64,000 nt of DNA from Hyphomicrobiales bacterium (GTDB lineage: Bacteria; Pseudomonadota; Alphaproteobacteria; Rhizobiales; JAKPQE01), in NCBI GenBank assembly GCA_041397845.1, contig JAWKVW010000009.1:26906-90905 (forward strand), given 5' to 3'. The translations under genes and the position numbers were made by a program. Below the pieces are notes generated by a model that did not search any database, was not told the origin of the DNA, and saw only the letters and a list, made by a program, of their open reading frames with translations. Positions 19,669 to 46,699 of the stretch are shown here, piece by piece; the stretch's first letter is position 1; every line of letters begins with the position of its first letter.

Positions 19669-20523
19669 ATGGCAGTGGACGGGATCAGGCAGATGGCGGA
19701 ACGGGAGGTCATGCGGGCGATTTTCGATCGCTCCTTCCTCGGGTCATTGGTCAGCCGGCGCGAGTTGCTGGCGCGCCTGACACGCCGGGACATCGAGAGC
19801 CGGTTCCGCGGCTCGCGGCTCGGCATGTACTGGGCGCTGGTGTCGCCGGTCGTCATCCTGTCGATCTACACGGTGGCGTTCAGCGCCATCATCCAGCCGC
19901 GCTGGCAGGCTTCGGTCGATCACAAGACCGACGTCGCACTGATCTATTTTTCCGGCCTCGTGCTGTTCGACTTCTTCATCGAGTGCCTGAACCGCTCGTC
20001 GAACCTGATGCATGACCACCGCTTCTACATCAAGCGCATGGTCTTTCCGGTCGATATCCTCGCCTATGTGGTGGTGTTCGGGGCGGCCTTCCGGCTGGTC
20101 ATCGGCGTTTTCCTGCTGCTCCTGCTCTACGTCGCGACGCATGGGTCGCTGCCGCTCGAATTCCTGCTCCTGCCGATCCCGCTGGCGTTCCTGGCGCTCT
20201 TTGCCCTCGGCATCATCTGGTTCGTGTCGGCAATCGGCGCCTATGCCAAGGATGTCGGTCTTCTCATCGGCGCGCTGGCGCCGGTGCTGATGTTCATCAG
20301 CCCGGTGTTTTTTCCCTCGACGATGATCCCGGCGACCTGGCGGGCGGTGCTCTACATCAATCCGCTGACCGTACCGATCGAGTGGGTGCGGGCGGTGCTG
20401 TTCCATTTCGAGCGGCCGTCGGTGCTGGCGCTCGTCGTCTACGCGCTTCTTTCGGTGCTTGTCGCCCATCTCGGCTTCCGGGTTTTCCAGCGGCTGCGGG
20501 GCGAGTTCGCCGACCTGCTCTGA
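19669..20523 (+). CDS. ABC-2 type polysaccharide/glycolipid export permease (Wzm/KpsM/TagG-like)
   Basis: 284 aa. The N-terminus is RRELLARLTRRDIESRFRGSRLGMYWALVSPVV, followed by 6 TM segments. Confidence 0.8.
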   Translation: MAVDGIRQMAEREVMRAIFDRSFLGSLVSRRELLARLTRRDIESRFRGSRLGMYWALVSPVVILSIYTVAFSAIIQPRWQASVDHKTDVALIYFSGLVLFDFFIECLNRSSNLMHDHRFYIKRMVFPVDILAYVVVFGAAFRLVIGVFLLLLLYVATHGSLPLEFLLLPIPLAFLALFALGIIWFVSAIGAYAKDVGLLIGALAPVLMFISPVFFPSTMIPATWRAVLYINPLTVPIEWVRAVLFHFERPSVLALVVYALLSVLVAHLGFRVFQRLRGEFADLL

Positions 20524-20535
20524 CCGGGGGCGCGT

Positions 20536-21663
20536 GTGGCTGCCATCGAAGTCCTCGCCGCGATCATCCTTGTCGTCGCCCTTGCGGTGCGGATCGGTTC
20601 GCTCGTCATCGCCGCGGCGCAGCCGGCTTTGGCGCGGCGGCGGGCGCGGCGCGACGGCCGGCCGGGCGTTTCGGTGCTCGTGCCGGTGAAGATCGTCGAT
20701 GCGGCGTTCGAGCAGGCGCTCGTCTCGCTTGTCGGGCAGGATTATCCGGATTTCGAAATCGTCATCTGCGGCGATGCGGCCTCGGAAGCGGCGTTCGCGG
20801 CGGCGCGGGCGATCGTTGGCGCCACGCCGCCAGTGCCGGTTTCCTTCGCGCTCGCGACCCGCAGCGTTGGCCCCAATCCGAAGATCACCAACCTTGCCGC
20901 CGGCGTCGCGGTCGCCAGCCGGGAGCTGCTGCTCATCAAGGATTCCAACATCGTGATGGAGCCGGACGGGCTGTCGCGGCTGGTTGAAGCACTGGCCGAG
21001 GGCGTCGGCCTTGTCTGCGCGATCCCGGTGGCGGAAGCAGCAGACGGTTTTGCCTCGCAGATCGAGCAGTCGGTGATGAACGGCCATGCCGCGCCGCTGG
21101 TCCTTGCCGGTTCGGCGCTCGGGCTCGACATCGGCTATGGCAAGGTGATGCTGGTGCGGCGCCCGGACTTCGATGCGATCGATGGCATCCGGGTGATGGC
21201 GCCGCATTTCGGCGACGACCATGCGCTCGCCATGGCGCTGAGGTCCCGCGGTCTGCGGACCGCGTTCACCGGCGCGCCGGTGTGGCAACCGCTCGGGCGA
21301 CGGCGGATCGCCGATGTCGCGGACCGGCAGTTGCGCTGGATGGTCATTCGGCGCGACCAGGCCTTTGCCGCCTTCCTCACCGAGCCGCTTTCAACGGCAA
21401 GCTTCGCGGTGCTTGCGGCAGTGCTCGCGGTGCCGGTCATCGGGATTGGCGGGCCAGCGCTCGCCGGGCTCGTGGCGCTGGTCTGGATCGTCACCGAGAT
21501 GCTGTTCCTCGCCGCGCGCGGCTGGGGCGTGCCGACTGCGACGCCGGCGGCGATCGTTGCCCGCGAGGCGCTGGTGCTCGCCCTCTGGGTCCGGGCCTGG
21601 TTTGCCCGCAAGGTCACATGGCGCGGGGCGTCGTTCGAAGTCGGCGGCGGCGAGGGCGCCTAA
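20536..21663 (+). CDS. GT-A fold glycosyltransferase, GT2/GT21 (ceramide-glucosyltransferase-like)
   Basis: 375 aa with a GTG start and an N-terminal TM. It has GVSVLVPV...QDYPDFEIVICGDA and a (Q/R)xxRW motif (DRQLRWMVIRR), followed by C-terminal TM segments. Confidence 0.7.
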   Translation: MAAIEVLAAIILVVALAVRIGSLVIAAAQPALARRRARRDGRPGVSVLVPVKIVDAAFEQALVSLVGQDYPDFEIVICGDAASEAAFAAARAIVGATPPVPVSFALATRSVGPNPKITNLAAGVAVASRELLLIKDSNIVMEPDGLSRLVEALAEGVGLVCAIPVAEAADGFASQIEQSVMNGHAAPLVLAGSALGLDIGYGKVMLVRRPDFDAIDGIRVMAPHFGDDHALAMALRSRGLRTAFTGAPVWQPLGRRRIADVADRQLRWMVIRRDQAFAAFLTEPLSTASFAVLAAVLAVPVIGIGGPALAGLVALVWIVTEMLFLAARGWGVPTATPAAIVAREALVLALWVRAWFARKVTWRGASFEVGGGEGA

Positions 21664-21665
21664 TC

Positions 21666-22499
21666 TCAGGCCTTGCCGCCGGGGCGGCCGATCCATTCGA
21701 CGACCCGGTCGGTCGTTTCGGTGATCTCGACCTCGATGCCGGCCATGACGCGGTCGACGATGCGGCGCGGCAGATAGCGCAGGAGCGCCGTCGCAAAGAC
21801 GATGATGCGCGGGAAGGCGACGACGGCGCGGCCCCGGTCAAGGCCGCGACGGATGATCCGGGCGGCGCGCTCCGGCGGCATGGCGAAGGGCTTGGGGCAT
21901 TCGAGATCGGCATTGAGCGGCGTCGTGACAAAGCCCGGGACGATCAGCGTCACGCCGACGCCGAAGCGGGCAAGGCTGCCGCGCATCGAATCGGCCCAGG
22001 CGTGCACGGCCGATTTCGCCGCGCAATAGGCCGGCGAATAGAGCATGCCCTTCAGGCCCGAGATCGAGCCGACGACGGCAATGCGGCCGGCCCGGCGGCG
22101 GGACATCGGCTCGAGCAAAGGCTCGACGGTGTTGAGGACGCCGACGAGATTGACGGCGAGGAGGGCGCGGACCGCCTCGGGCGTCTCGAACGGACGATCG
22201 CGGCCGATGCCGCCGGTGACGCCGGCATTGGCGATGGCGAGGTCGATCGGGGTCTCGCGATCGATGGCGGTGATGAAACCGGCAAGTGCGAGGCGGTCGC
22301 GCACGTCGATGGCGCCGATCGTTACCGTCGCGCCTTTCTGCCGGGCGGCGGTGGCGACCTCTTCAAGGCGATCGGCGTTGCGGCCGATGAGGACAAGGTG
22401 GCGACCGGGTGCGGCGTATTCGAGGGCCAATGCCCGGCCGATGCCGCTCGAGGCGCCGGTGATGAGAACCGAGGCGGGACGTGGCGGGGTTCTGGACAT
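21666..22499 (-). CDS. classical short-chain dehydrogenase/reductase (SDR)
   Basis: 277 aa with TGxxxGxG (ITGASSGIGRA), NAG and YxxxK (YCAAK). It is the only minus-strand gene between wzm and wzt. Confidence 0.85.
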   Translation of the reverse strand: MSRTPPRPASVLITGASSGIGRALALEYAAPGRHLVLIGRNADRLEEVATAARQKGATVTIGAIDVRDRLALAGFITAIDRETPIDLAIANAGVTGGIGRDRPFETPEAVRALLAVNLVGVLNTVEPLLEPMSRRRAGRIAVVGSISGLKGMLYSPAYCAAKSAVHAWADSMRGSLARFGVGVTLIVPGFVTTPLNADLECPKPFAMPPERAARIIRRGLDRGRAVVAFPRIIVFATALLRYLPRRIVDRVMAGIEVEITETTDRVVEWIGRPGGKA

Positions 22500-22703
22500 G
22501 GGCTTTCAGCGGCTCCGGGTTCGGCAAACGGCAGGCGAAATCGCGCAGACGCTTTCCAACGCACCATCGGAACGCCGGCGCGGCGCGGGTGCGGCGGGAC
22601 GTCCGGCGTCAACGATCATTGCCATTGGTTTATAGACGGAACCGGGACGAGTGGCTAAACCTCTGTGCGAACGGGAAAACAAAACGCCGGCGCCTGTCAT
22701 CGC

Positions 22704-23441
22704 ATGAGCGAAGAATACGTCATCGAGGCCGAAAACCTCTCCAAGAGGTTCGACACGCGGTGGAATCGCGGCGGGGCGCGGCTGCTCGGCCATATCACCG
22801 GGCGCGAGCCGCCGGACGAGCATGTCTTCACCGTCTTTTCCGGCGTCAGCTTCAAGGTGCGCAAGGGCGAGTCTGTCGGCATTCTCGGCGTCAACGGCGC
22901 CGGCAAGTCGACGCTGCTGCAGGTCGTTGCCGGGGTGATGGTGCCGACCAGCGGGCGGGTTTCGGTCAAGGGGCGCGTCTCGGCCCTGCTCGAGCTCGGC
23001 GCCGGCTTCAATCCGGAATTCAGCGGCCGGGAAAACATCTTCCTCAATGCCTCCATTCTCGGCTTTTCCAATGCCGAGATCGAGCGGCTGCTGCCGTCGA
23101 TCCTCGCCTTCGCGGCGGTCGAGGACCAGTTCATCGACCGGCCGGTGAAGACCTATTCGAGCGGCATGTATGTGCGTCTCGCCTTCTCGGTGGCGATCCA
23201 TGTCAGTCCGGACGTGCTCATCGTCGACGAGGCGCTGGCCGTCGGCGACCAGTTCTTCCAGAAGAAGTGCTACGCCTTCCTGCAGAACCAGATGGCGGGC
23301 GTGACCAAGCTGTTCGTCACCCACGACGCGGGGGCATTGCGCCTTCTGGCCGACCGGGCGCTCGTCATCGACCGGCATGGCCTCATCTTCGACGGTGACA
23401 TCGAAGAGGCGATAGAAATCTACCGCAACGAGCATCCCTGA
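22704..23441 (+). CDS. polysaccharide/glycolipid ABC exporter ATP-binding protein (Wzt/KpsT/TagH-like)
   Basis: The ORF was trimmed to the ATG at 22704. It has Walker A (GVNGAGKST), signature (YSSGMYVRL) and Walker B (VLIVDEA). Confidence 0.85.
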   Translation: MSEEYVIEAENLSKRFDTRWNRGGARLLGHITGREPPDEHVFTVFSGVSFKVRKGESVGILGVNGAGKSTLLQVVAGVMVPTSGRVSVKGRVSALLELGAGFNPEFSGRENIFLNASILGFSNAEIERLLPSILAFAAVEDQFIDRPVKTYSSGMYVRLAFSVAIHVSPDVLIVDEALAVGDQFFQKKCYAFLQNQMAGVTKLFVTHDAGALRLLADRALVIDRHGLIFDGDIEEAIEIYRNEHP

Positions 23442-23537
23442 GGCTGGCTACGGCAACAAACGACCGGTGTTTGACAATTTTCCCGCCGCGGCTACTGATT
23501 GGGGACGCCCGCCGGCAAATTGCGTGTGAGTATTCGA

Positions 23538-24772
23538 ATGGCCGAAGACCTTCATTCCCTTGATGCCTATGCGGCACGGTTGTTCCGGCTCGGCGGCGGA
23601 GCAGCGGTGGCCGGCGGCAGAACCCGTATTTTCTCGCCCTCGACGAGGCGCGGCTGGCGGCCGAGGCGGAAGGGCGGCGGTTCGTCTCCTTTGCCAATTA
23701 CGACTATCTCGGCCTGTCGCGCCATCCCGAGGTGGAGCGGGCGGCGGCGGGGGCGCTGGAGCGGTTCGGCACCGGGGCGCTCGCCTCGCGCATCGTCGGC
23801 GGCGAGCGGTCGATCCATCGCGAATTCGAGCGGGCGCTCGCCGGCTTCTGCGGCAGCGAGGACGCGCTGACGCTGGTCAGCGGCTTTCTCACCAACGCGT
23901 CGCTGATCAGCCACATCATGGGGCCGAACGACTGCATCGTCATCGACGAGCTGTCGCATGCCTCGATCGTCAACGGCACGAAATGCGGCCGGGCGACGAC
24001 CTACAAGTTCCGGCACAACGATCTCGATCATCTCGACCACGTACTGGCGGCGCAGCGCGGCGGCCATGGCCACTGCCTGATCGTCGTCGAGGGCCTTTAC
24101 AGCATGGATGGCGACGTGCCGGACCTGACACGGCTCCTTGAAATCAAGGACCGTCACAAGGCCTGGCTGCTCATCGACGAGGCGCATTCGCATGGCGTGC
24201 TCGGCGCCGGCGGGCGCGGCATCGCCGAGCATTTCGGCGAAGATCCGGCGCGGATCGACCTTGTCGTCGGCACGCTGTCGAAGACCTTCGTTTCATGCGG
24301 CGGCTTCATCGGCGCGGCGAAGTCGGTCATCGACCTCTTGCGGTTCTCGTTGCCCGGCTTCGTCTTCAGCGTCGGCATGCCGCCGATGGTGACGGCATCG
24401 GCCATGAAGGCGCTCGAGCTGGTCTCGAGGGAGAGCTGGCGGGTCGGCAAGCTTGCCGAGAACACGGCCTATTTCATGGAGCTGGCGCATGCCGCCGGGC
24501 TCGACACCGGGCCGGCGATCGGCCGGGCGGTGGTGCCGATCTTCTTTGCCAGGGCGGCAGAGACGATGATCGCCTCGGAACGGCTTCTCGAGGAAGGCTT
24601 CTATGCGCCGCCGATCGTGCAGATTGGCGTGCCGAAAGACATGCCGCGCATCCGTTTCTTCTTCTCGGCAGCGCACGAAAAGGCGGATATCGCCCGCGCG
24701 GTCGACATTCTCGCGGGCGTTGCGACCGAGCTTGGCGCGGTGCGGCCGCGCACGACCGAGCCGGCCGATTAA
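23538..24772 (+). pseudogene. PLP-dependent alpha-oxoamine synthase (serine palmitoyltransferase / 8-amino-7-oxononanoate synthase family); apparent frameshift near 23612-23621
   Basis: The ATG at 23538 gives MAEDLHSLDAYAARLFRLGGGAAVAGG. The conserved continuation NPYFLALDEARLAAEAEGRRFVSFANYDYLGLSRHPEV... is in the -1 frame. That frame has no start codon before the GTG at 23732 and has an upstream stop at 23561. The PLP-lysine motif is GTLSKTF. Confidence 0.75.
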
Positions 24773-24850
24773 GGCGGCGGGCCGGGAGGCGGCCCTGCCG
24801 AGAGTTGCGTAGAGCCCGCCCGGCATCGGGGCGGGCGGAGGACAGGACGG

Positions 24851-25891
24851 ATGGGCCGCATCCTTTATGGCGTCATGGGCGATCGCGGCGGCCACCTGTC
24901 CCGGGCGATCGCCGTCGCCCACGAACTGCCCGGCCACGAGATCCTGTTCGTCGGCGGCGGGCGGATCGGCGAGGTCGAGCGGCACGGCTTCAGTTTCCAG
25001 CGCACGCCGATGATCGGCACCGAGATGACGGGCGGGCGGATCGACCTTGCCGCGACGATCACCGGGGCCATTCGCGAACTCTGGCGCTACCGCCAGACAA
25101 TCGAGCACCTCAAGGGGCTCATTGACGAATACGATCCGGACCTCATCGTCACTGACTTCGAGTTTTTCCTGCCGCGGGCGGCGCGGGCGCTCGGCCGGCC
25201 AGCGATAAGTCTCGACCGGCACCACGCGATCACCCATTGCCAGTACGACCGGCCGCCCGGGCATTTCGGCACGCGGGCGCTGTCGCTCGGCATTCTCCAC
25301 TCGATGCAGATGGCCGCCGACCGCTACATGGTCGTGTCGTTCGCGCCGATGGAGCCACGCGACCCGATCGCCGCGGAGGTCTATCCGCCGGTCATCCGCC
25401 GCGATCTGAGCGGCTTCTCGCCGGCCGAAGACGAGCACGCCGTCGTCTATCTCTACGGGGTGACGATCGAACGTATCCGCGAGGTTTTCGGCGGCCGCGA
25501 GCGGCGCTTCGTCGTCTATGGCCAGGGCAGGGAAGGCGAAGAGGGCAATCTCGTCTTCCGGCGCCATTCGACGGACGGGTTCCTCGCCGATCTCGCCAGC
25601 GCCGCCTATGTCGTCAGTCATGGCGGCCACAACCTGATTTCCGAGGCGTTGCACTTCCGCAAGCCGCTGCTCGCCTTTCCGCTCGGCTTTGAATACGAGC
25701 AGTATTTCAATGCCTGGCAGCTTCAGCAGACCGGCTATGGCGCTCTCGGCGAGGCACGGCAGGCGCGGGCAGCACTCGACCGCTTCGAAGTTGATCTCGA
25801 GGGGTTAAGGCAGCGGCTCGCCGGCTACCGGCCATGGTCGGAGCGCACGGTCGCCGACCGGTTCGACGAACTCGTCCGGGTCGGGCTCTAA
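24851..25891 (+). CDS. glycosyltransferase (MurG/GT28-like C-terminal domain, MJ1255-type)
   Basis: 346 aa. The N-terminus is MGRILYGVMGDRGGHLSRAI and the C-terminal motif is SHGGHNLISEALHFRKPLLAFPL...EQYFNA. Confidence 0.7.
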   Translation: MGRILYGVMGDRGGHLSRAIAVAHELPGHEILFVGGGRIGEVERHGFSFQRTPMIGTEMTGGRIDLAATITGAIRELWRYRQTIEHLKGLIDEYDPDLIVTDFEFFLPRAARALGRPAISLDRHHAITHCQYDRPPGHFGTRALSLGILHSMQMAADRYMVVSFAPMEPRDPIAAEVYPPVIRRDLSGFSPAEDEHAVVYLYGVTIERIREVFGGRERRFVVYGQGREGEEGNLVFRRHSTDGFLADLASAAYVVSHGGHNLISEALHFRKPLLAFPLGFEYEQYFNAWQLQQTGYGALGEARQARAALDRFEVDLEGLRQRLAGYRPWSERTVADRFDELVRVGL

Positions 25892-26886
25892 GCTTTTTCC
25901 CCTGTCCGCATTTCTTCGGCGCGATGCCAGTCCCAGGCGGTGCGGACAATCGTCTCGATGCCGGAATGCACCGGATCGAAGCCGAGGGTGGCGCGGGCAA
26001 GGGCGGGATCGGCGACGAGAGCGGCCGGATCGCCCGGCCGGCGCGGGCCGGAAATCGCCGGCAGCGCCATGCCCGAGACCTTCTCGATCGCCGCCAGAAC
26101 CTCGCGCACCGAATTGCCGGTGCCGGAACCAAGATTGAAGATGCCGCCGTCATGGCCGGAATTCAGCAATCCGAGCGCGGCGACGTGTGCGGCGGCAAGG
26201 TCGGTGACGTGGACATAGTCGCGGATCGCGGTGCCGTCCGGGGTCGGGAAATCGCTGCCGAAGACGGCGAAGTCGGCGATGCGGCCGAGGAGGGCGAGGA
26301 TCGCCCGGGGAATGAGGTGGCTTTCCGGGTCGTGGCGCTCGCCGATCTCGCCGTCGGGATCGGCACCGGCGGCATTGAAATAGCGCAGGGTGACCGAGCG
26401 CGTGCCATAGGCGGCACCGAAATCGGCCAGCGCCTGCTCGATCATCCGCTTCGTGCGGGCGTAAGGATTGATCGGGGCGATCGGGGTCGTTTCGGCGATC
26501 GGCACCCTGTCGACATTGCCGTAAACCGAACAGGTGCCGGAAAAGACGATGCGGCCGCAGCCGGCGGCGCGCATGGCGGCAAGCAGCGACAGGGCGCCGG
26601 CGACGTTGTTGTCATAATATTTCTGCGGGTCGAGGACGGACTCGCCAACCTCGGCGCAGGCGGCGAAGTGCAGGACCGCCTCGGCCCTTGTGTCCCGAAG
26701 GACACGCTCGAGGGCGGCAGTGTCGCGGATATCCCCTTCGACCAATGGCCCCCAGCGCACGAAATCGGCATGGCCGGTCGACAGATTGTCGAAGACTATC
26801 GGCGAAAAACCATTTCTCGACAGTGCTTTGCAGGTGTGCGAGCCGATATAGCCGGCGCCGCCGACAACAAGGACTGGTCGTGTCAT
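25888..26886 (-). CDS. galE: UDP-glucose 4-epimerase
   Basis: The listed 761-aa ORF was trimmed to the ATG at 26886. Motifs: VLVVGGAGYIGSH, YARTK (YxxxK), RYFNAAGADPDGEIGE and RDYVHVTDLA. Confidence 0.9.
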   Translation of the reverse strand: MTRPVLVVGGAGYIGSHTCKALSRNGFSPIVFDNLSTGHADFVRWGPLVEGDIRDTAALERVLRDTRAEAVLHFAACAEVGESVLDPQKYYDNNVAGALSLLAAMRAAGCGRIVFSGTCSVYGNVDRVPIAETTPIAPINPYARTKRMIEQALADFGAAYGTRSVTLRYFNAAGADPDGEIGERHDPESHLIPRAILALLGRIADFAVFGSDFPTPDGTAIRDYVHVTDLAAAHVAALGLLNSGHDGGIFNLGSGTGNSVREVLAAIEKVSGMALPAISGPRRPGDPAALVADPALARATLGFDPVHSGIETIVRTAWDWHRAEEMRTGEKA

Positions 26887-28314: not shown

Positions 28315-28371
28315 CAGCGGGCCAACCTTCCTTACGGCCTCAATTCGCGGGCCGGCAACTCAGCAAGCGTC

Positions 28372-31644: not shown

Positions 31645-31667
31645 GGACACTTGCCGGAACGCGCCAG

Positions 31668-32624: not shown

Positions 32625-32627
32625 GCG

Positions 32628-34486: not shown

Positions 34487-34600
34487 ACACAGCCTGTGCC
34501 ACGCTTTGCGGTGGCCTTGGCGTTGTTTTTCCTGATATTTCTTGAAACGGGGAACGGGGGCGCGTTACGGGCAGATGAGCATTGTCCGGCCGGATGTGAA

Positions 34601-37857: not shown

Positions 37858-38008
37858 TCATGAGAGGTGGTTGCGTGGCAAAAGGCCCCGGTTTTTTCAA
37901 GGGCTTGGCACTGGACGGAGGCTGTCGTCCTCTGGAAACATATGGAAATAAAGATAAGTCCGGCGCCGCTGTCGCGCGACTGGACGATCGGCTGTATCGA
38001 GTAAGCGC

Positions 38009-39169
38009 ATGGCAACCGGGCTGAAACCGGAAATCCGCACTGTCGAGACAAGAAGAGACCTGAAGCTCTTCCTGCGGCTGCCGCGCCTCATCTATGCCGG
38101 CATGGCCGGCTTCTCGCCGCGCCTCGACTTCGAGCAGGCCGAAATCCTCGATCCGAAGCGCGGGCCGTTCTTCCGCCACGGCCGGGCGCGTTACTTCCTT
38201 GCCGTGCGGGACGGGGTCGCGGTCGGCCGCATCTCGGCGCAGATCGACGACCTCGGCCGGCCGGGCGAGGGACTTTTCGGCTGCCTCGATGCCATCGATG
38301 ACTTCGCCGTCGTCGAGGCGCTGCTGACGGCTGCGGAAGGCTGGCTCGCCGGCGAGGGTGCGAGACTGGCGCGCGGTCCGTTCATGCTCTCGATCAATGG
38401 CGAGAGCGGCCTCCTGCTGGAAGGGCAGATGACGCCGGCGATGGTGATGATGGGCTGGTCGCCGGCCTATCTTGCCGACCATCTGGAGCGCGCCGGATAT
38501 CAGCTTGGCAAGCGCCTTCTGACCTACCGCATGGCGCTCGAGGCCGACACCGACAATGCCCATGCGGCGTCGCTGCGCGGGCGGCTCGTCACTGGCCGAA
38601 ACCGGGTGCGCGGCCTCGACATGGCGAACCTTGCGCGGGAGGCGGAGATTTTCGCGACGCTCTTCAATGATGCCTGGGCCGGCAATTGGGGTTTTGCGCC
38701 GATCACGCAGGCGGAGATCGCCAAGATGCTGACGTCGATGCGGCTGATGCTGCATCGCGATTTCGGCGTCGTTTTCGAGACGGACGGAAAGCCGATCGGT
38801 TTTGCGCTGGCGTTGCCGAACCTTGCCGAAATCGTCCATGAGTTCAATGGAAGGCTGTTGCCGTTCAACTGGCTGAAGCTTGGCAGGTGGGCGCTTGGGC
38901 GCAAGTGCCGGTCGGTGCGGATCATCCTGATGGGCGTTGCCGGCGCCGTCCGCTCAAGCGTTCTCGGTGCGGCGGTTCCGATCGTTCTCATCGACGAACT
39001 CATCCAGCGCAGCAAGGGCGATGGCTGGCAGGTCGACGAGATCGAGATGGGTTGGGTGCTGGAGGATAACTTGCAAGTCCGCGCACTGATCGAAAAGGTC
39101 GGTGGCAATGTGGACAAGACCTACGGCATCTTCGACAAGGAGTTGGCCGCCCCGACGGGCGGTCGTTGA
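38009..39169 (+). CDS. GNAT-fold N-acyltransferase-like protein (uncharacterised ~390-aa family)
   Basis: 386 aa. The N-terminus (IRTVETRRDLKLFLRLPRLIYAGMAGFSPRLDFEQAEILDPKRGPFFRHGRARYFLAVRDGVAVGRISAQID) matches a widespread family usually annotated as GNAT N-acetyltransferase. Confidence 0.6.
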   Translation: MATGLKPEIRTVETRRDLKLFLRLPRLIYAGMAGFSPRLDFEQAEILDPKRGPFFRHGRARYFLAVRDGVAVGRISAQIDDLGRPGEGLFGCLDAIDDFAVVEALLTAAEGWLAGEGARLARGPFMLSINGESGLLLEGQMTPAMVMMGWSPAYLADHLERAGYQLGKRLLTYRMALEADTDNAHAASLRGRLVTGRNRVRGLDMANLAREAEIFATLFNDAWAGNWGFAPITQAEIAKMLTSMRLMLHRDFGVVFETDGKPIGFALALPNLAEIVHEFNGRLLPFNWLKLGRWALGRKCRSVRIILMGVAGAVRSSVLGAAVPIVLIDELIQRSKGDGWQVDEIEMGWVLEDNLQVRALIEKVGGNVDKTYGIFDKELAAPTGGR

Positions 39170-39187
39170 AAGCGGGGGTATGACCAG

Positions 39188-39478
39188 ATGACCGAAACGG
39201 CTGGCAAGGAAGGCACTGATACGCTGGAAGAGCGTATCGTCGCGATCGTCGTCCGCGAGGGCATGATCGATCGCGAAAAGCTCGTGCCGGAGGCGACGCT
39301 CGAGGATCTCGGGGTCGATTCGGTCGAAGTCGTCATGATCCTGAACGGGATCGAGGAAGAGTTCGGCATCTATGTGCCGATCGACGAGACAATGTCCGAA
39401 GTGCGCACGGTCGGCGATCTGCTCGGCGTCATCAAGGGCATCGTCGAAAAGAAGGCGGCAGAGCCGCAGGCGGAATGA
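39188..39478 (+). CDS. acyl carrier protein
   Basis: 96 aa with the phosphopantetheine-attachment motif LGVDSVEVVMIL. 4-nt overlap with the downstream KAS gene. Confidence 0.85.
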   Translation: MTETAGKEGTDTLEERIVAIVVREGMIDREKLVPEATLEDLGVDSVEVVMILNGIEEEFGIYVPIDETMSEVRTVGDLLGVIKGIVEKKAAEPQAE

Positions 39479-40686
39479 ACAAGGTTTTCATTACGGGACT
39501 TGGCGCCGTCACCGCCCACGGCATCGGCAGCGATGTTCTCTGGCGCGCGGCGCGGGACGGGCGTTCGGGGTCGGTGCCAATCGAGTTCGAGCGCGGCATC
39601 GGCGCCGTGCAGCATGCGGCCCGCTTCAGTGACTTCGACGCGGAGGCCTATTTCGGCAGCGAGGATATCTCGCGCCTCGACCGGTTCTCGCAATTCGCGG
39701 TCATCGCGGCGAACGAGGCCTTCGCCGAGGCAGGGCTCGATGCCGGGTCGCTGGCCGGGCCGTCGACGGCGGTCATTGTCGGCACAGGCATCGGCGGCTC
39801 GACGACCTTCGAGGAAGGCTGCCACGACTTCTTTGCGCTCGGCAAGCGGCGGACCAATCCGCTGACGGTGCCGAAGGTCATGGCGAATGCCGCGGCCTGC
39901 CAGATCGGCATGCGGATCGGGGCGAATGGCCCGACCTTCGCAGTCTCCTCGGCCTGCTCCTCGGCCAATCAGGCGATGGGCATAGCCGCGGCGCTGGTGC
40001 GGGCCGGGGTTGTCGACCGCGCCGTGACGGGCGGCTCGGAGACGATGATCACCTCGGCGGTGATGCGGGCCTGGGAATCGATGCGCGTCCTGACGCCCGA
40101 CGCCAACCGGCCGTTCTCCAGGGGGCGCAACGGCATGCTGCTCGGCGAGGGCGCGGGCATCGTCGTGCTTGAAAGCGAGCAGTCGATGCTGGCGCGGGGC
40201 GGGCGTCCGCTGGCGGAATTCGCCGGCTACGGCACGACCTCGGATGCGGCCGACCTTCTGCGTCCTGACGCGGCGAGCGCGGCGCGGGCGATGCGGCTGG
40301 CGCTCGAGGAAGCAGGGATCGCGGCGGAGGACGTCGACTATGTCAGCGCCCATGGCACCGGCACCATCCTCAACGACGTGACCGAGACGGAAGCGATCCG
40401 GATTGCGCTTGGCGAGCGGGCGAACGCCGTGCCGGTCTCGTCGACGAAGCCGATCCACGGCCATTGCCTTGGCGCATCCGGCGCGCTCGAGCTCATCGTT
40501 ACGGTGCGGGCGATGACGGAGGGCTTCCTGCCGCCGACGATCAACTGGCTCGAGGCCGACCCGAAATGCACGCTCGATGTCGTGCCGAATGTCGGCCGGC
40601 CGGCCGAGATCCGCACGGCGCTCAGCAATTCTTTCGCTTTCGGCGGCATCAACGCGGTGATTGCGCTGCGCCGCGCCGCGGCCTGA
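39475..40686 (+). CDS. beta-ketoacyl-ACP synthase (KAS I/II family, FabF/NodE-like)
   Basis: 403 aa with active-site Cys (VSSACSSANQA), two His motifs (SAHGTGT, KPIHGHCLGASG) and a C-terminal NSFAFGGINAV. Confidence 0.9.
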   Translation: MNKVFITGLGAVTAHGIGSDVLWRAARDGRSGSVPIEFERGIGAVQHAARFSDFDAEAYFGSEDISRLDRFSQFAVIAANEAFAEAGLDAGSLAGPSTAVIVGTGIGGSTTFEEGCHDFFALGKRRTNPLTVPKVMANAAACQIGMRIGANGPTFAVSSACSSANQAMGIAAALVRAGVVDRAVTGGSETMITSAVMRAWESMRVLTPDANRPFSRGRNGMLLGEGAGIVVLESEQSMLARGGRPLAEFAGYGTTSDAADLLRPDAASAARAMRLALEEAGIAAEDVDYVSAHGTGTILNDVTETEAIRIALGERANAVPVSSTKPIHGHCLGASGALELIVTVRAMTEGFLPPTINWLEADPKCTLDVVPNVGRPAEIRTALSNSFAFGGINAVIALRRAAA

Positions 40687-40699
40687 GACGGGGGCGCCG

Positions 40700-41098
40700 A
40701 TGGGCGAGAGCGCTGGAAAATCGGGAACGATCGCGTTCGAGGCGGTCGTCGAGCCGGCGCGCGCCGCCCGGTTCGCGGAAAGCCTCGGATTGCCGGGCGA
40801 TACCGTGCCGCTCGTCTTCCCGGCGTTCTGGCTGTTCGAGCCGGAAACGCAGGCGCTGCTCGGCGGTCTCGTCGGCAAGGACCATGTGCCGATCCATGTC
40901 GGGCAGGTGTTCCGCTATGCCGCGCCCTTGCGGCAGGGCGGGCGCTATCACGTCACGGTCGCCGGCGAGCGGACCGAGGTTCGCGGCAAGGAAAACCTTC
41001 TTGTCGACATCACCGTGCGCGACGCGGACGGCAACGAGGTCGTAGAGGCGCGCTCGACGGTGCTCCTGCTGCCGGTGGCAGCGGGAGAGGGACAATGA
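40700..41098 (+). CDS. hot-dog fold protein (MaoC-dehydratase N-terminal-like)
   Basis: 132 aa, trimmed to the ATG at 40700. Its size and pairing with the next MaoC gene suggest a two-subunit dehydratase. 4-nt overlap with the next gene. Confidence 0.6.
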   Translation: MGESAGKSGTIAFEAVVEPARAARFAESLGLPGDTVPLVFPAFWLFEPETQALLGGLVGKDHVPIHVGQVFRYAAPLRQGGRYHVTVAGERTEVRGKENLLVDITVRDADGNEVVEARSTVLLLPVAAGEGQ

Positions 41099-41487
41099 CG
41101 GTGGCCGGGGAGATGGCGCCGGTCGCGCTCGGCAGCATCAGCCGGGACGCGCTTTCGGGCTATCTGGCAATCTCCGGCGACGGCAATCCGGTGCATTTTG
41201 ACCCTGCCGTCGCGGCGATCGCCGGCCTTGCGGATACGCCGGTGCCCGGGCTTCTTGCCATGGCGCTGATGGAGCGGGCGGTGCGGCATTGGTTTGCCGG
41301 CCGGGAGGTTGGCGAGTTCCAGCTCTCGTTCGCGGCGCCGATCCTGCCCGATGCGGCGCTCGTTGCCGATGCGCGCCCGGCGGGCACTTCCGGGGGAAAC
41401 GATCTGGTGCGCGTGCGGCTGCTGTGCGACGGTAAGATCGCGGCGATCGGGGTGCTCTCGATCGCGACGGGGACGGAACGGGCTTAG
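41095..41487 (+). CDS. MaoC-like (R)-specific dehydratase/hydratase
   Basis: 130 aa with a hydratase motif region (YLAISGDGNPVHFDPAVAAIAGLADTPVPGLL). Confidence 0.75.
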   Translation: MTVAGEMAPVALGSISRDALSGYLAISGDGNPVHFDPAVAAIAGLADTPVPGLLAMALMERAVRHWFAGREVGEFQLSFAAPILPDAALVADARPAGTSGGNDLVRVRLLCDGKIAAIGVLSIATGTERA

Positions 41488-41489
41488 TC

Positions 41490-43046
41490 ATGACCACTGG
41501 AGGGGAGCGGTCGGGAGCCTTGGCCGGCGCCCTTGCCGGCAAGCGGCTGCTGATCGTCACGCCGGAAATCCTCGGGCCGATCCGCAATGGCGGCATCGCA
41601 ACGGCGTTCAACGCGCTCGCCCGGCTCTGGCAGGAGGCCGGCGCCCGCGCGACCATTGCCTATGTCGAGGAAGCGCTGCGCCAGCCCTACGACCGGGCGC
41701 ACTGGACGGCGCACTACGGGCAGCTCGGCATCGAATTCATTCCGATCGCGACGGATACCCTGCCGGACCTGCCGCAGCTTGCGGTGTCGGACCTGCGAGC
41801 GACGGCATGGCAGGTTCACCACTGGCTGGAACCGCGGGCGGGAGACTACGATCTCGTTGTCTTTCCCGACTGGACCGGCGTCGGCTTCTACGCGCTCCTG
41901 GCGCGCGATCAGGGCATCGCCTATCGCGACCTGCCGATGGCGGTCAACACGCACGGCCCCTCGACCTGGACGCAGGACGCCAATCTCGTCCTTGCCGAGA
42001 CGGCGGACGACGTCGACCGCGACTACATGGAGCGGCAATCGGTGCGGCGTGCCGATTTCGTCGTCAGCCCGAGCGCCTTTCTTCTCGACTGGATGCGGGA
42101 CTATGGCTGGGAGGTGGCGCCGCGCCTGGAGGTCATCCAGAACCTGCTCAATCCGGAGGAACTCGAAACGGTGCCGGGCACCGAGCGGCGGCCGGTGCGC
42201 GATGTCGTGTTTTTCGGCCGGCTGGAGAAGCGCAAGGGCCTGAAGCTCTTCTGCGATGCCATCGACAGGCTTTCGGCGGAAGAGCGGGGCGGGATCGAAA
42301 CCGTGCATTTCTTCGGCCGGGCCGTGCCGGCGCCGGGTTTCGATCCGGAGCGGTTCATTGCCGAGCGCTCGGCAGCCTGGGGCGCCAAGGTCGAGGTGCG
42401 CACCGATCTCGACCGCGAGGCGGCGCTCGGCCGGCTTTGCCGCGCCGGGACGCTGGCGGTGATGCCGTCAAAGAGCGAGAACTCGCCCTATACGGTGCTT
42501 GAATGCCTGCATCATGGCATCGGCTTTCTGGCGACACGGGCCGGCGGTACGGCCGAGCTCATTGATGCGCGCGACCGCGACGAGGTGCTCTTTCCGGCAA
42601 CGCCGGAGGGGCTTGCCGGCCAGCTTCGGCGGGCGCTCCGGGACGGCGTCCGGCCGGCGCGGCGGGCGGTTGCGGCAGGGGAGGTGCGGGCGCGCTGGAT
42701 TGACTGGACGCTGGCGGCGACGGATGCTGCTTGGCGCGCCGGCAATGGGCAAGGCCGACGGCGAGACGCCGCTCGTCACGGTCTGCATCACGACCTTCGA
42801 GCGGCCGGCGCTGCTTGCCGAGGCGATTGCCTCCATCGAGGCGCAGACCTATCCGGCAATCGAGATCGTCGTTGTCGACGATGGCAGCCGCAAGCCGGAG
42901 ACGCTTGCCGCGCTCGACCGGCTGGCCGCAGCGTTCGCGCCGCGCGGCTGGCAGGTGCTGCGGCAGGAGAACGCCTATGTCGGGGCGGCGCGCAACACCG
43001 GTACGGCGGCGGCGCGGGGCGAATACATCCTTTTCATGGACGATGA
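41490..43046 (+). CDS. glycosyltransferase (GT-B, family 4-like); 3' end uncertain
   Basis: The N-terminus is LLIVTPEILGPIRNGGIATAF and the C-terminal GT-B motif is SENSPYTVLECLHHGIGFLATRAGGTAELI. After about residue 412 the ORF becomes Arg/Gly-rich. There it overlaps the next GT2 gene in another frame for about 300 nt. Confidence 0.65.
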   Translation: MTTGGERSGALAGALAGKRLLIVTPEILGPIRNGGIATAFNALARLWQEAGARATIAYVEEALRQPYDRAHWTAHYGQLGIEFIPIATDTLPDLPQLAVSDLRATAWQVHHWLEPRAGDYDLVVFPDWTGVGFYALLARDQGIAYRDLPMAVNTHGPSTWTQDANLVLAETADDVDRDYMERQSVRRADFVVSPSAFLLDWMRDYGWEVAPRLEVIQNLLNPEELETVPGTERRPVRDVVFFGRLEKRKGLKLFCDAIDRLSAEERGGIETVHFFGRAVPAPGFDPERFIAERSAAWGAKVEVRTDLDREAALGRLCRAGTLAVMPSKSENSPYTVLECLHHGIGFLATRAGGTAELIDARDRDEVLFPATPEGLAGQLRRALRDGVRPARRAVAAGEVRARWIDWTLAATDAAWRAGNGQGRRRDAARHGLHHDLRAAGAACRGDCLHRGADLSGNRDRRCRRWQPQAGDACRARPAGRSVRAARLAGAAAGERLCRGGAQHRYGGGAGRIHPFHGR

Positions 43047-43626
43047 CGACGTTGCCGTGCCCGAGGAGGTGGCAACGTTCGTTGCCGTTGCCCGGCGGAC
43101 CGGGGCGGACATCCTGACCTGCGCGTCGAGCCTCTTTGAGGGGGCAGAGCCGCCGGCGCGGCCGGAGCGGCTCTGGGTGGCGCTCGGCGGGGCGCTTGGC
43201 GCGGGCATCTTCCAGAACGCCTTCGGCAGCGTCAATGCGTTCTGGCGGCGGCAGGTCTATCTCGATCTCGGCGGCCACACGACCGACTACGGCATCGGCT
43301 ATGAGGACTGGGAAATGTTCGCGCAGGCGATGATCGCCGGCTACCGGCTTGATCTCGTGCCGCGCGCGCTCTTTCACTATCGCGTCTCGACGACGGGGAT
43401 GCTGCGCACCACCGACGTCGACACCAACCTTGCGCGCAGCGCCCGTGCCTTCGTCAAACATGCGCCGCTCGGCCTCGGAGTGGCGATCGGCCATGCCGTT
43501 CACCTCGAGCGCCAGCACGAACTCGCCCGGCGCAAGCGACCGACCTACGGCGAGTTGATCCGGCGGGACATCGGCTGGACGCGGCGCTGGCTCCGGCGGC
43601 GGCTCCGGCGCTGGTTCGGAATCTGA
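42724..43626 (+). CDS. glycosyltransferase family 2
   Basis: ATG at 42724 (alternative start 42745). Motifs: PLVTVCITTFERPALLAEAIASIEAQTYPAIEIVVVDDGS and FMDDDD. Confidence 0.75.
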   Translation: MLLGAPAMGKADGETPLVTVCITTFERPALLAEAIASIEAQTYPAIEIVVVDDGSRKPETLAALDRLAAAFAPRGWQVLRQENAYVGAARNTGTAAARGEYILFMDDDDVAVPEEVATFVAVARRTGADILTCASSLFEGAEPPARPERLWVALGGALGAGIFQNAFGSVNAFWRRQVYLDLGGHTTDYGIGYEDWEMFAQAMIAGYRLDLVPRALFHYRVSTTGMLRTTDVDTNLARSARAFVKHAPLGLGVAIGHAVHLERQHELARRKRPTYGELIRRDIGWTRRWLRRRLRRWFGI

Positions 43627-43643
43627 AAAGGACGGCTGCCGCC

Positions 43644-44990
43644 TTGTCGATGTCGATGCATGACGACCCTGAAACGGCCCGGCCGGAGATTGCCGATCTC
43701 CTGCTGGCATTGATCATTGCCGTCATCGTTGCCCTGCCGTCGCTGCCGGGGCGGATGAGTGCCGATTCTCTCAACATGTACGAGCAGGCGGTGTTCGACA
43801 GCTACACCGACCAGCACGTGGTGCTGATCCCGTGGATCTGGCACCGGCTTGGCGTTTCGCCGGGGCTGATCGCAGCCGAAACCGTCATTGTCGTTGTGGC
43901 GTTCGTCTGGGCCTTCCTGATGATCTTCCGCGCTGCCGGCCTGTCGCGGGGCCGGGCGGGCGTCGCGGCGGCGGCGCTGGCGCTCTTTCCCCCGGTGCAT
44001 GGCTATCTGACCGGCGTTTCCAAGGATAGCTGGACCGCGGCAGTTCTCGTGCTGCTGTTCGGGCTGGCGGTCGTCGGCGGCGGACGGGGCGCGTTCGTCG
44101 TCCGGGCGCTCCTTGCCGGCCTTGCGGTCGTCATCCGGCCGGAGACGGTGCTGCTGCTGCCGCTGCTCGCATTTGGCGACGCCTTCATCCGGCGCGCCGG
44201 TGTTGCGGCGATGGCGGCGTTCCTTGCCATCGGGCTCGTTGTGCCGGCGCTCAACGGCGTTTTCGTCGATCGTGTCGCGCGGGCCGAGAAGACCGGCCCC
44301 GATTCGATCATCTACCTTTTCGATCTTGTCGGCCTGTCGCTGAAGCGGCAGGAAATGCTGCTGCCGCCGGCGGCGTTCCCGGCGCAGGATCTTCAGGTGC
44401 TCGAACGGCATTTCCATCCCTCGAGCGTCAACACGCTGGTCTGGGGCGTGCCGAAGGAGGAGATGGCGGTCTTCGTCACCGGCGAGGATCTCGCCGATCT
44501 GCGGCGGCGCTGGATCGCGGCAATTCTTGCCAACCCGCTCGATTATCTCGAAGTGCGCTGGCCGGTCATCAAGGCCTATCTCAGGGGCGAGTGGCGGTAC
44601 CATCCGGGGATCGACCCGCATCCGGACATCAGGTCGTACTTTCCGGCCGGGGTCGAGGCGATGAACGCCGTCATGGATGCGTCGCCGCGGCTGCTTGCCA
44701 GCCATATCGTGCCGATGACCGGCGCCTTCGTTCTGCTCATTGCCCTGCATTTCGGGGCGCGCGACCGGCTCGACCGGGCGCTGGCGGTCTTCCTCGGCGT
44801 CGGGCTTTGCTATCAGGGACTGTTCCTCATCCTCATCCCGGCGCCCGACTACCGGTTCGGCTATGCCGGCGTCGTCATCTTCTATCTGGCGCTGGCGGCG
44901 GCGGTTTTCCGCTATCTCCGGGCCTTGTCGGCACGGGCACGCCGCGCGCCGCGTGGCAAGGACGACCGGGACCGGCACCGGATCCCCTGA
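43644..44990 (+). CDS. polytopic membrane protein, function unknown (possibly polymerase/ligase/GT-C-like)
   Basis: 448 aa with many hydrophobic segments and no motif I can name. It is the last gene of the co-directional cluster. Confidence 0.45.
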   Translation: MSMSMHDDPETARPEIADLLLALIIAVIVALPSLPGRMSADSLNMYEQAVFDSYTDQHVVLIPWIWHRLGVSPGLIAAETVIVVVAFVWAFLMIFRAAGLSRGRAGVAAAALALFPPVHGYLTGVSKDSWTAAVLVLLFGLAVVGGGRGAFVVRALLAGLAVVIRPETVLLLPLLAFGDAFIRRAGVAAMAAFLAIGLVVPALNGVFVDRVARAEKTGPDSIIYLFDLVGLSLKRQEMLLPPAAFPAQDLQVLERHFHPSSVNTLVWGVPKEEMAVFVTGEDLADLRRRWIAAILANPLDYLEVRWPVIKAYLRGEWRYHPGIDPHPDIRSYFPAGVEAMNAVMDASPRLLASHIVPMTGAFVLLIALHFGARDRLDRALAVFLGVGLCYQGLFLILIPAPDYRFGYAGVVIFYLALAAAVFRYLRALSARARRAPRGKDDRDRHRIP

Positions 44991-45260: not shown

Positions 45261-45299
45261 GCGGGTGGTCTCCTGTGGCGGGATTTTCCCGGAAATGTC

Positions 45300-46690: not shown

Positions 46691-46699
46691 CGTCCGACC

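Follow-up and report, generated by a model that had tools for sequence, protein, structure and literature searches.

A glycosyltransferase-rich gene cluster of a Hyphomicrobiales bacterium as a candidate locus for a ceramide-anchored glycolipid

What kind of molecule is made by a gene cluster in which many glycosyltransferases are mixed with lipid-building enzymes and two different envelope transport devices? The question is raised by a block of about 25 kb (positions 19669-44990) in a 64,000-nucleotide stretch of a Hyphomicrobiales bacterium genome (contig JAWKVW010000009.1 of assembly GCA_041397845.1, positions 26,906 to 90,905), the whole of which we call the window. An earlier note on this DNA had listed the gene families of the block and proposed that they make an acylated, lipid-anchored glycoconjugate. 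We called genes by third-position GC and scanned the calls against Pfam and NCBIfam, and these scans recovered every one of the listed families in its place. As the window has a G+C content of ~67%, raw lists of open reading frames (ORFs) consist mostly of spurious frames. We read the block as a probable locus for making and exporting a complex glycosphingolipid (GSL), in other words a glycolipid anchored by a ceramide, through a variant of the bacterial sphingolipid pathway. Family assignments and gene co-occurrence are reported below as results, and the pathway chemistry is inferred from them.

The block holds 24 to 26 genes, depending on how split fragments are counted, so the 26 genes given previously are right as an approximate figure, and the exact number shifts with three genes that are split by frameshifts. 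From 27106 to 44990 every gene lies on the plus strand, and the last 18 to 19 genes form a tight co-directional array, as had been described, with intergenic distances of -11 to +57 nt and a sole exception of 151 nt ahead of 38009. The left flank carries polA and mltB, and the right flank carries rnf genes, nifL, nifA, and nifH. We found none of the WecA/WbaP, Wzx, Wzy, Wzz, or Wza families among the cluster ORFs or the scanned flank ORFs, in line with what had been noted for the window, and no ligase (Wzy_C) family was found in the window.

The first question is which lipid the block could build, and the central gene here is G19 (38009..39169, plus strand; genes are numbered G1 to G26), which encodes a tandem-GNAT N-acyltransferase with a weak GNAT match in the family scans. 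There are 894 homologues of G19, mostly unnamed or misnamed “dATP pyrophosphohydrolase”, and a sequence search of solved structures with G19 gave nothing useful. In a gammaproteobacterial metagenome-assembled genome (MAG; L006), a G19 homologue directly follows genes for an AMP-ligase, an epimerase-type reductase, an acyl carrier protein (ACP), and an alpha-oxoamine synthase (AOS). This gene set is the five-gene ceramide set of Caulobacter, which consists of AasR, CerR, AcpR, Spt, and the N-acyltransferase CC_1154/bCerS (PMC11324152; PMC11087976). We then scored 85 loci with a G19 homologue for their neighbours (80 fetched by family profile and five obtained earlier), and 30 of them carry the canonical genes for acyl-ACP synthetase (ACS) and/or CerR, mostly together with Spt. 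An AlphaFold2 model made with 28 homologues is a tandem GNAT with a predicted local distance difference test score (pLDDT) of 90, and its Foldseek matches are tandem GNATs. Because of the ceramide-set context in L006, the canonical loci, and the tandem-GNAT model, we place G19 in the bacterial ceramide synthase (bCerS) family, an assignment made through homologue context and model. The bCerS N-acyltransferase is GNAT-type and bears no relation to eukaryotic CerS. A link between G19 and the sphingolipid operon of E. coli UTI89, to which a 2026 preprint refers (bioRxiv 10.64898/2026.04.12.717747), was dropped; a blastn search with the homologue from an ‘Enterobacteriaceae’ MAG against E. coli genomes came back empty.

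The same survey ties G19 to other lipid genes of the block. A homologue of the window’s short-chain dehydrogenase/reductase (SDR; G3, 21666..22499, minus strand; Pfam adh_short, 138 bits) occurs in 18 of the 85 loci, never alongside ACS or CerR, and such loci often contain a window-type AOS (55-60% identity), an ACP, a beta-ketoacyl-ACP synthase (KAS), and a MaoC dehydratase. G3 is a classical SDR without a signal peptide, its N-terminus opening directly with the TGxxxGIG motif, and it is a candidate 3-keto reductase that would replace CerR. No homologue of CerR, an NDUFA9-like reductase of the epimerase family, was found in the block, where GalE and the UDP-xylose synthase are assigned as sugar-nucleotide enzymes. 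Neither was an acyl-ACP synthetase (AMP-binding enzyme) found in the block; instead, the ACP precedes genes for a KAS and hot-dog dehydratases. These plus-strand genes encode a dedicated ACP (G20, 39188..39478; Pfam PP-binding, 40 bits, with a GVDSVE motif), a FabF-like KAS (G21, 39475..40686; Pfam ketoacyl-synt N- and C-terminal domains, with NCBIfam fabF at 396 bits, under the cut-off of 494), a hot-dog fold protein (G22, 40661..41098; weak PS-DH/DUF4442 matches under cut-off), and a MaoC/HadB-like (3R)-hydroxyacyl-ACP dehydratase subunit (G23, 41095..41487; Pfam MaoC_dehydratas, 47.6 bits, with NCBIfam HadB at 38 bits, under cut-off). G22 is a probable non-catalytic HadA-like partner. A KAS comes after bCerS-ACP in four other loci (L002, L007, L014, L078), the position of G22 is kept in five (L001, L007, L014, L042, L167), and one 279-aa MaoC-domain protein stands in the dehydratase position in Bradyrhizobium (L002).

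The AOS itself is Spt-like (G5, 23538..24772, plus strand; Pfam Aminotran_1_2, 140 bits). The best PDB match of an intact orthologue is the Sphingobacterium SPT (3a2b, 220 bits), by a small margin, and the same slot in L002 holds a near-Spt enzyme that scores 489 bits against a 500-bit cut-off. AOS, SDR, and bCerS form a three-gene module in L005 and L015 (Acetobacteraceae MAG), and they occur together with ACP-KAS-dehydratase in Beijerinckiaceae, Methylocella, and Methylovirgula. The lipid genes, which the earlier note had described as rarely seen in O-antigen or EPS loci, are no odd mix given the company that this GNAT family keeps: although scattered in the window, they appear to be one module, a variant of the bacterial ceramide pathway. 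We did not adopt aryl-polyene, NodEF, or AcpXL-type readings of the ACP, KAS, and dehydratase genes; the module is consistently linked to a bCerS-family gene and an SDR, and often to an AOS. Beside these loci, we observed that the AOS-SDR-bCerS set of L005 lies next to KpsC/KpsS-type capsule genes. In Komagataeibacter, Gluconacetobacter, and an uncultured Acetobacteraceae MAG (L004, L008, L009, L011, L013, L017), the SDR adjoins a bCerS-family gene with no AOS within 10 kb, and the two genes are a divergent pair in L004.

If the lipid is a ceramide, which enzyme would join it to a sugar? The candidate is G2 (20536..21663, plus strand), a GT21 glycosyltransferase (Pfam Glyco_transf_21, 138 bits) and candidate ceramide glycosyltransferase, which shows full-length similarity to ceramide glucosyltransferase in the PDB (26qs/26qf; E 1e-32, residues 41-368). 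In both Bradyrhizobium (L002) and Labrys (L007), the GT21 gene ends an operon of the form bCerS-ACP-KAS-dehydratase-SDR-GT21, and this linkage to bCerS and SDR makes ceramide a candidate acceptor. A metagenome scan with GT21 returned mostly distant relatives (26-30% identity) without ceramide genes, the informative ones being L170 and L171.

The set of sugar genes is large enough for an extended glycan, and the earlier count of at least ten glycosyltransferases together with GalE and a UDP-xylose synthase is borne out: besides GT21 there are G6, four GT4 domains, one GT8, two of GT2 type, and one of GT-C type. G6 (24851..25891, plus strand) is a GT-B glycosyltransferase of the MJ1255/VC2487 family (Glyco_trans_1_3/GT28-like; Pfam, 192 bits), and its gene adjoins the AOS gene in L167, L250, and L251. 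GalE, the UDP-glucose 4-epimerase, is encoded on the minus strand (G7, 25888..26886; NCBIfam TIGR01179, 407 bits, above the cut-off of 262). The rest lie on the plus strand. They include two GT4 enzymes, namely G9 (28372..29589; Pfam Glycos_transf_1, 117 bits), with orthologues in L001 (87% identity), L251 (74%), and L167 (62%), and G10 (29586..30659; Pfam Glyco_trans_1_4/Glyco_transf_4), with orthologues in the same three loci. The UDP-glucuronate decarboxylase, or UDP-xylose synthase (UXS; G11, 30649..31644), matches human UXS1 (2b69/4gll) at 412 bits (E 1e-122). It is followed by a GT8 enzyme (G12, 31668..32624; Pfam Glyco_transf_8, 149 bits), a soluble GT2-like enzyme (G13, 32628..33467; Pfam Glycos_transf_2, 28.7 bits; orthologues at 80% identity in L001, 70% in L167, and 64% in L251), and another GT4 (G14, 33464..34486; Pfam Glycos_transf_1, 61 bits), whose orthologue in L167 lies between SDR and AOS. 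Near the distal end, G24/25 (41490..43626) encodes a two-domain glycosyltransferase with Pfam GT4 and GT2 halves. The last gene, G26 (43644..44990), encodes a 448-aa polytopic membrane protein with ~9-10 transmembrane (TM) segments, a 140-aa loop, and a weak GT87 match; a sequence search of solved structures gave nothing useful. It has 652 relatives, of which 12 out of 50 match DUF2142 and others PMT_2. Because its relatives include DUF2142, PMT_2, and GT87 matches, we read G26 as a GT-C superfamily protein and candidate periplasmic glycosyltransferase. An orthologue that is 44% identical stands beside Wzm in Bradyrhizobium L002; G26 is absent in L001, where another GT2 takes its place.

How would such a glycolipid leave the cytoplasm? 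Two envelope transport devices had been reported for the block, and both are present. The first consists of a Wzm-like ABC-2 permease with ~6 TM segments (G1, 19669..20523, plus strand; Pfam ABC2_membrane, 73 bits) and a Wzt/TagH-like ABC ATPase (G4, 22665..23441, plus strand; Pfam ABC_tran), a short form without a Wzt_C domain whose best NCBIfam matches are the TagH and galactan Wzt models (146-172 bits, all under cut-off). Their orthologues in the sister-MAG locus L250 are 72% and 78% identical, respectively. A Wzm/Wzt pair adjoins GT21 or ceramide genes in at least six independent loci, namely in the window, in the sister MAG (L250/L171), in Bradyrhizobium L002 and Labrys L007, in a Beijerinckiaceae MAG (L167, within the block), and on the soil contig L170. 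No sphingolipid flippase is known, according to the authors of PMC11087976, and we infer that Wzm/Wzt is a candidate for this role in bacteria.

The second device is a lone LptF/G-family permease (G15, 34496..35803, plus strand; Pfam LptF_LptG, 77.7 bits; E 6e-5 against PDB LptF chains), a candidate glycosphingolipid extractor with the layout expected for LptF/G, in which TM1-3 and TM4-6 enclose a soluble loop of ~170 aa. No LptB-like gene was found in the window. In Bradyrhizobium L002, an LptF/G-type gene shares one operon with Spt and two radical SAM genes. A precedent for such a permease comes from the LptF2/G2/C2 paralogues of the Caulobacter sphingolipid locus, which can be deleted only when anionic sphingolipid synthesis is absent, and of which LptF2 and LptG2 bind each other and the housekeeping LptB, as reported in the 2026 preprint (bioRxiv 10.64898/2026.04.12.717747); they had been annotated earlier as second copies (PMC11324152). 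We also observed that the soil metagenome contig L170 (Ga0209006_10005544; 270-11448) carries a type I polyketide synthase (PKS; KS-AT-DH...) divergent from Wzm-Wzt-GT21, and on the other side a second GT2/GT21, an unknown gene, and an LptF/G-family permease. The trio of GT21, Wzm/Wzt, and LptF/G therefore recurs with a different lipid-building enzyme.

Whether these parts belong together can be judged from other genomes. Gene-neighbourhood comparison showed the lipid genes, GT21, and both transport devices in each other’s company in five other lineages, frequently within the same operon. Large parts of the block recur in the sister MAG, a Rhodobiaceae MAG, a Beijerinckiaceae MAG, Bradyrhizobium, and Labrys, and because of this synteny we regard the block as a real recurrent unit and not a chance arrangement. 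By its SerS, the organism falls in Hyphomicrobiales. The sister MAG is JPNA_maxbin.170, whose SerS is 95% identical to that of the window (<=72% for anything else) and which has the block at the same chromosomal position: on its contig 121, Wzm-GT21-Wzt-AOS-G6 follow SerS by 18 kb, and contig 139 is a collinear continuation from G6 to the GT4-GT2 fusion. Between the window and this MAG, the cluster proteins share 53-92% identity, far under the value for SerS, as is usual for surface-glycan genes. In L001, 19 window genes are collinear. The Rhodobiaceae MAG (L251) has ten genes in the same order (GT21, SDR, AOS, G6, GalE, G8, G9, G10, G12, and G13), the Beijerinckiaceae MAG (L167) has 15-16 window genes, including G6, G9, G10, G13, G14, and G16/17, and Bradyrhizobium (L002, assembly GCA_032489995.1) has 12. 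The SDR on the minus strand between GT21 and Wzt is found in the window and L251 and is missing from L250.

Since the lipid genes, GT21, and transporters co-occur and no enzyme for initiation on undecaprenyl phosphate was found in the window, a lipid-anchored glycoconjugate is the best reading, as the earlier note had argued, and we would sharpen it to a glycosphingolipid. In the pathway that we propose, the ACP (G20), FabF-like KAS (G21), and HadAB-like pair (G22/G23) would make or elongate a dedicated acyl-ACP, replacing the acyl-ACP synthetase. The AOS (G5) would condense an amino acid, most likely serine, with that acyl chain to give a 3-keto long-chain base, the bCerS-family tandem GNAT (G19) would N-acylate the long-chain base, and the cytoplasmic SDR (G3) would then reduce the 3-keto group in place of the periplasmic NDUFA9-like CerR. 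GT21 (G2) may then add the first sugar at the cytoplasmic face, after which the glycan would be lengthened by G6, the GT4s, the GT8, and the GT2s, with GalE supplying UDP-Gal and UXS supplying UDP-Xyl. Passage across the inner membrane would fall to Wzm/Wzt (G1/G4), and once in the periplasm the glycolipid may be modified by the GT-C-type protein (G26). Its extraction for transfer to the outer membrane would be the task of the LptF/G-type permease (G15), for which the housekeeping LptB is the probable energy source. The Twitch radical SAM enzyme (G8), G16/17, and the DUF4833 protein (G18) would be conserved accessories. Under this proposal, the lipid, and not undecaprenyl phosphate, would carry the entire glycan during its assembly.

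Several points weigh against this proposal. The CerR and acyl-ACP synthetase of the canonical pathway are absent from the block, and the sister MAG (L250, 7751-9673) has no SDR between GT21 and Wzt, the region corresponding to 20536-23441 of the window. The AOS fails every curated Spt model, as the window gene reaches 189-276 bits and the intact orthologue L042 210-292 bits, under all three NCBIfam cut-offs; its best NCBIfam match is BioF-like, and the BioF model failed too. For this reason, serine is no more than a predicted substrate. The GT21 family also holds enzymes that do not act on ceramide, HpnI being one example and the Agrobacterium diacylglycerol glycosyltransferase another. Wzm/Wzt normally exports polyprenyl-linked glycans, the Wzt of L002 and that of L167 carry the Wzt_C domain typical of O-antigen export, and a phosphotransferase for initiation may lie in another part of the genome. 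The window has a single LptF/G-family gene, as do L001 and the visible part of L002, and no LptC/OstA family match was found among the block proteins. Finally, three genes, the AOS gene among them, are frameshifted in the present sequence.

Some of these points suit an arrangement of two adjacent systems, in which a locus for ceramide or a simple glycosylceramide sits next to an ordinary ABC-transporter-dependent O-antigen or exopolysaccharide locus. For that second locus, a WecA-type enzyme from another part of the genome would start the glycan on undecaprenyl phosphate, and Wzm/Wzt would export it before it is released or joined to lipid A-core. Wzm/Wzt, arrays of GT4, GT2, and GT8 genes, GalE, and UXS are standard content of such loci, and WecA is often encoded outside O-antigen clusters. 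The Wzt_C domains of L002 and L167, accompanied in L002 by a methyltransferase domain, are typical of O-polysaccharide chain-end recognition, and the distal end of the block varies between close relatives (G26 in one, the other GT2 in L001), as it does in O-antigen loci. The gene order, however, does not separate into two systems. Lipid and glycan genes are interleaved, with Wzm-GT21-SDR-Wzt-AOS-GT at one end, LptF/G among the glycosyltransferases, and bCerS-ACP-KAS between glycosyltransferase groups. In L167, five particular glycosyltransferases (G6, G9, G10, G13, and G14) accompany the AOS and the radical SAM enzyme, as do all but G14 in L251. Wzm/Wzt also adjoins GT21 beside the PKS of L170, and neither the ligase nor an initiating transferase family was found in the window. 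We consider two separate systems unlikely, if still worth keeping in mind.

It is more doubtful still that the lipid is no true sphingolipid at all. Here the AOS would use glycine, alanine, or another amino acid to give an N-acylated amino-ketone or amino-alcohol lipid, or GT21 and the radical SAM enzyme would modify a hopanoid or diacylglycerol. The BioF-like match of the AOS fits this, as does its identity of only 31-38% to the canonical Spt of ACS-CerR loci; HpnI is the best NCBIfam match of GT21, and L002 and L167 carry a B12-type radical SAM gene next to the module. These signs are outweighed by the SPT that is the best solved relative of the intact AOS orthologue, by the near-Spt enzyme in the same slot of L002, and by a partner N-acyltransferase that belongs to the bCerS family. 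A hopanoid pathway in particular, with GT21 as HpnI and a radical SAM enzyme as HpnJ, was rejected: GT21 reaches 183 bits against the 310 of the HpnI cut-off, the B12 radical SAM of L002 reaches 30 bits against 578 for HpnJ, and no other hpn families were found in the block.

The frameshifts raise the question of whether the locus is intact. Three block genes are each broken by a 1-nt frameshift relative to intact orthologues: the AOS gene near 23624 (unbroken in L250 and L251), G16/17 in a G-run near 35935 (an unbroken 475-aa orthologue in L001), and the GT4-GT2 fusion near 42730 (one 728-aa ORF in L001). We observed a fourth in mltB, left of the block (18081-19564), which lies in two frames, with MltB_2 positions 1-196 in ORF 18081-19223 and the SLT_2 C-terminus plus PG_binding_1 in ORF 19085-19564. 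Because the cluster frameshifts are all at short homopolymers (GGGG, AA, TT), because third-position GC remains high in the shifted frames, and because housekeeping mltB is also split, we believe that they are probably assembly indel errors rather than decay. That the locus is decaying or non-functional in its source organism, with the AOS gene, G16/17, and the GT4-GT2 fusion as pseudogenes, seems improbable on the same grounds, even with three single-base frameshifts in 25 kb that are all absent from the orthologues of L001, L250, and L251.

Returning to the ceramide-anchored glycolipid, its proposed accessories include a radical SAM enzyme (G8, 27106..28314, plus strand; Pfam Radical_SAM and SPASM, the latter at 56 bits). 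The earlier note had called it a radical SAM/SPASM enzyme, and the radical SAM motif and the match to the SPASM model hold up, but the full SPASM designation does not. Across 21 homologues, C62/C66/C69 (CX3CX2C) are invariant and only five C-terminal cysteines are conserved, in the pattern C-X17-C-X40-C-X2-C-C, so that G8 is predicted to have a Twitch-like auxiliary-cluster domain and not a full seven-cysteine SPASM domain with two auxiliary clusters. Its PDB matches are SkfB, BlsE, and BtrN. The enzyme is highly conserved, with homologues of 55-87% identity, and it is part of the supercluster in L001, L002, L167, and L251. We also saw homologues of 55-57% identity in Desulfomonilaceae and another lineage (L168 and L169, ~10001-12131), in a conserved context of Hpre_diP_synt_I, NusG_II, NrdR, and RibD that has no sphingolipid genes and offered no hint of a function, suggesting that the role of this family is wider than sphingolipids. 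Further radical SAM genes that the window does not have occur in relatives: an extra B12-binding enzyme (DUF4070) in L002 (15561-17198) and L167 (1-1949), and a second SPASM-type enzyme next to the module in L167. These may represent lineage-specific lipid modifications such as methylation.

Two further conserved proteins are encoded on the plus strand. G16/17 (35808..37195) would be a protein of ~460 aa; it had no Pfam, NCBIfam, or PDB match, and L167 has a partial orthologue. G18 (37192..37857) is a DUF4833 protein (Pfam, 78 bits) with a twin-arginine-type signal and is probably periplasmic; a single-sequence structure prediction made as a check for an LptC/LolA-like fold was unusable (pLDDT 35), and we found no literature on DUF4833.

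The surroundings of the block offer a few observations of their own. The composition profile showed no GC anomaly marking a recent island, and an Rfam scan of the whole window found no RNA families. On the left, polA (1131 aa, minus strand, region 15173-18865) is mirrored on the opposite strand by an even longer ORF of 1229 aa; this is a typical high-GC artefact, and ORF length in this window is no proof of a gene. To the right (45000-53989), minus-strand genes rnfH, rnfE, and rnfG and more rnf-like ORFs are followed by a nifL-like PAS/histidine-kinase gene and a nifA-like GAF/sigma-54 activator gene, with nifH farther on (62067-62999). Because of these nif genes near the block, we take the organism to be a diazotroph. 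A nifL-nifA pair is unusual in Alphaproteobacteria.

If the proposed pathway is right, what would it mean? It would represent a second architecture for ceramide synthesis, with an SDR in place of CerR and a KAS plus dehydratase in place of the acyl-ACP synthetase, and searches built on the canonical four-gene operon would miss such SDR-type loci. It would extend Lpt-type sphingolipid extractors beyond Caulobacter and Sphingomonas, possibly to forms that work with a single permease gene. It also predicts that nitrogen-fixing Hyphomicrobiales, some Bradyrhizobium included, display a complex surface glycosphingolipid, which, if true, would matter for how hosts recognise these bacteria and for their sensitivity to phages and polymyxin. 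The main value of the locus lies in Wzm/Wzt as a concrete, testable candidate for a sphingolipid flippase and in the possible ceramide-anchored, lipopolysaccharide (LPS)-like surface glycolipid. It is tempting to go further, and we do so tentatively, holding the following to be a minority prospect: some Hyphomicrobiales may make an LPS-like molecule with a ceramide in place of lipid A as its anchor, in which a multi-sugar glycan is built up in the cytoplasm straight on glycosylceramide, Wzm/Wzt flips it as the so far missing sphingolipid flippase of bacteria, and a single, possibly homodimeric LptF/G-type permease hands it over to the Lpt bridge. On this view, GT21, Wzm/Wzt, and LptF/G would make up an export module for glycolipids that is general and portable and also serves PKS-derived lipids as in L170, and the Twitch radical SAM enzyme would perform a new modification of the lipid or the first sugar.

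How much of this is already known? The earlier note did not recognise the combination as a described pathway, and this needs dividing. The core is described, as it consists of the bacterial ceramide pathway, a homologue of the GT21 ceramide glucosyltransferase, and LptF/G paralogues tied to sphingolipid transport. For this variant, or for sphingolipids in Bradyrhizobium, Beijerinckiaceae, and related Hyphomicrobiales, we found no description in the searchable literature, and as far as that literature shows, the undescribed features are the SDR, the KAS/dehydratase module, the Twitch radical SAM enzyme, Wzm/Wzt, and the ten or more glycosyltransferases. The bacterial route to sphingolipids was resolved only in 2019-2022, and a survey noted spt in the canonical four-gene operon for “a few Rhizobiales” only.

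The closest known system is the sphingolipid locus of Caulobacter and Sphingomonas, which includes Lpt paralogues, and we take that of Caulobacter crescentus for comparison (ccna_01212-01226/CC_1152-CC_1168, with Spt, AcpR, AasR, CerR, bCerS, and LptF2/G2/C2). Like the block, it unites an AOS, a dedicated ACP, a bCerS-family enzyme, and an LptF/G-family permease in one locus, it has no dedicated LptB, and its product is bound for the outer membrane, as we predict for that of the block. In contrast to Caulobacter, the block has a classical cytoplasmic SDR instead of the periplasmic NDUFA9-like CerR, a KAS and HadAB-like dehydratase instead of the acyl-ACP synthetase, an AOS outside the curated Spt families, and one LptF/G gene instead of two, with no recognisable LptC2. 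For the head group of its product we predict a glycan of several sugars where Caulobacter has phosphoglycerate, and the block adds Wzm/Wzt, GT21, about ten glycosyltransferases, the Twitch radical SAM enzyme, DUF4833, and the GT-C protein.

Known bacterial GSLs carry one to four sugars. Among them, GSL-1 to GSL-4 of Sphingomonadaceae and GSL-2 of Caulobacter (Sgt1/Sgt2) are ceramides that receive their sugars from cytoplasmic glycosyltransferases and are exposed in the outer membrane (PMC6445935), and the product proposed here would share both features. In the block, the first transferase would be a GT21, and about ten glycosyltransferases, two sugar-nucleotide enzymes, and an ABC-2 exporter point to a glycan that is larger and LPS-like. 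Eukaryotic ceramide glucosyltransferase UGCG (GT21) and HpnI share with the block’s GT21 an N-terminal TM segment and a Glyco_transf_21 domain, although their identity to it is distant.

Export of O-antigen and teichoic acid by ABC transporters (Wzm/Wzt, TagGH) resembles the block in having an ABC-2 permease and ATPase among GT4, GT2, and GT8 genes, and in a glycan that is presumably finished in the cytoplasm before export. In contrast to O-antigen export, the block has neither a polyprenyl-phosphate initiating enzyme nor a WaaL-type ligase in the window, its Wzt lacks the carbohydrate-binding C-terminal domain, its transporter genes are interleaved with ceramide genes, and the proposed carrier is ceramide.

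For the acyl genes, comparison can be made with the rhizobial AcpXL/FabF-XL/FabZ-XL cluster, which serves the very-long-chain acyl groups of lipid A, and with the mycobacterial HadAB dehydratase. These modules, like that of the block, have an ACP and a FabF-type KAS to themselves, along with a hot-dog dehydratase that is either fused or made of two subunits. The block has no LpxXL-type acyltransferase or dedicated enoyl reductase, and its acyl genes go with an AOS and a bCerS-family enzyme and not with lipid A. Finally, G8 can be compared with BtrN, a carbohydrate (sugar) dehydrogenase of ~250 aa with a single auxiliary cluster. The two share the CX3CX2C motif, and the C-terminal cysteine pattern of G8 resembles that of the single auxiliary cluster of BtrN; G8 is longer, at ~400 aa, and the similarity is marginal (E ~1e-3).

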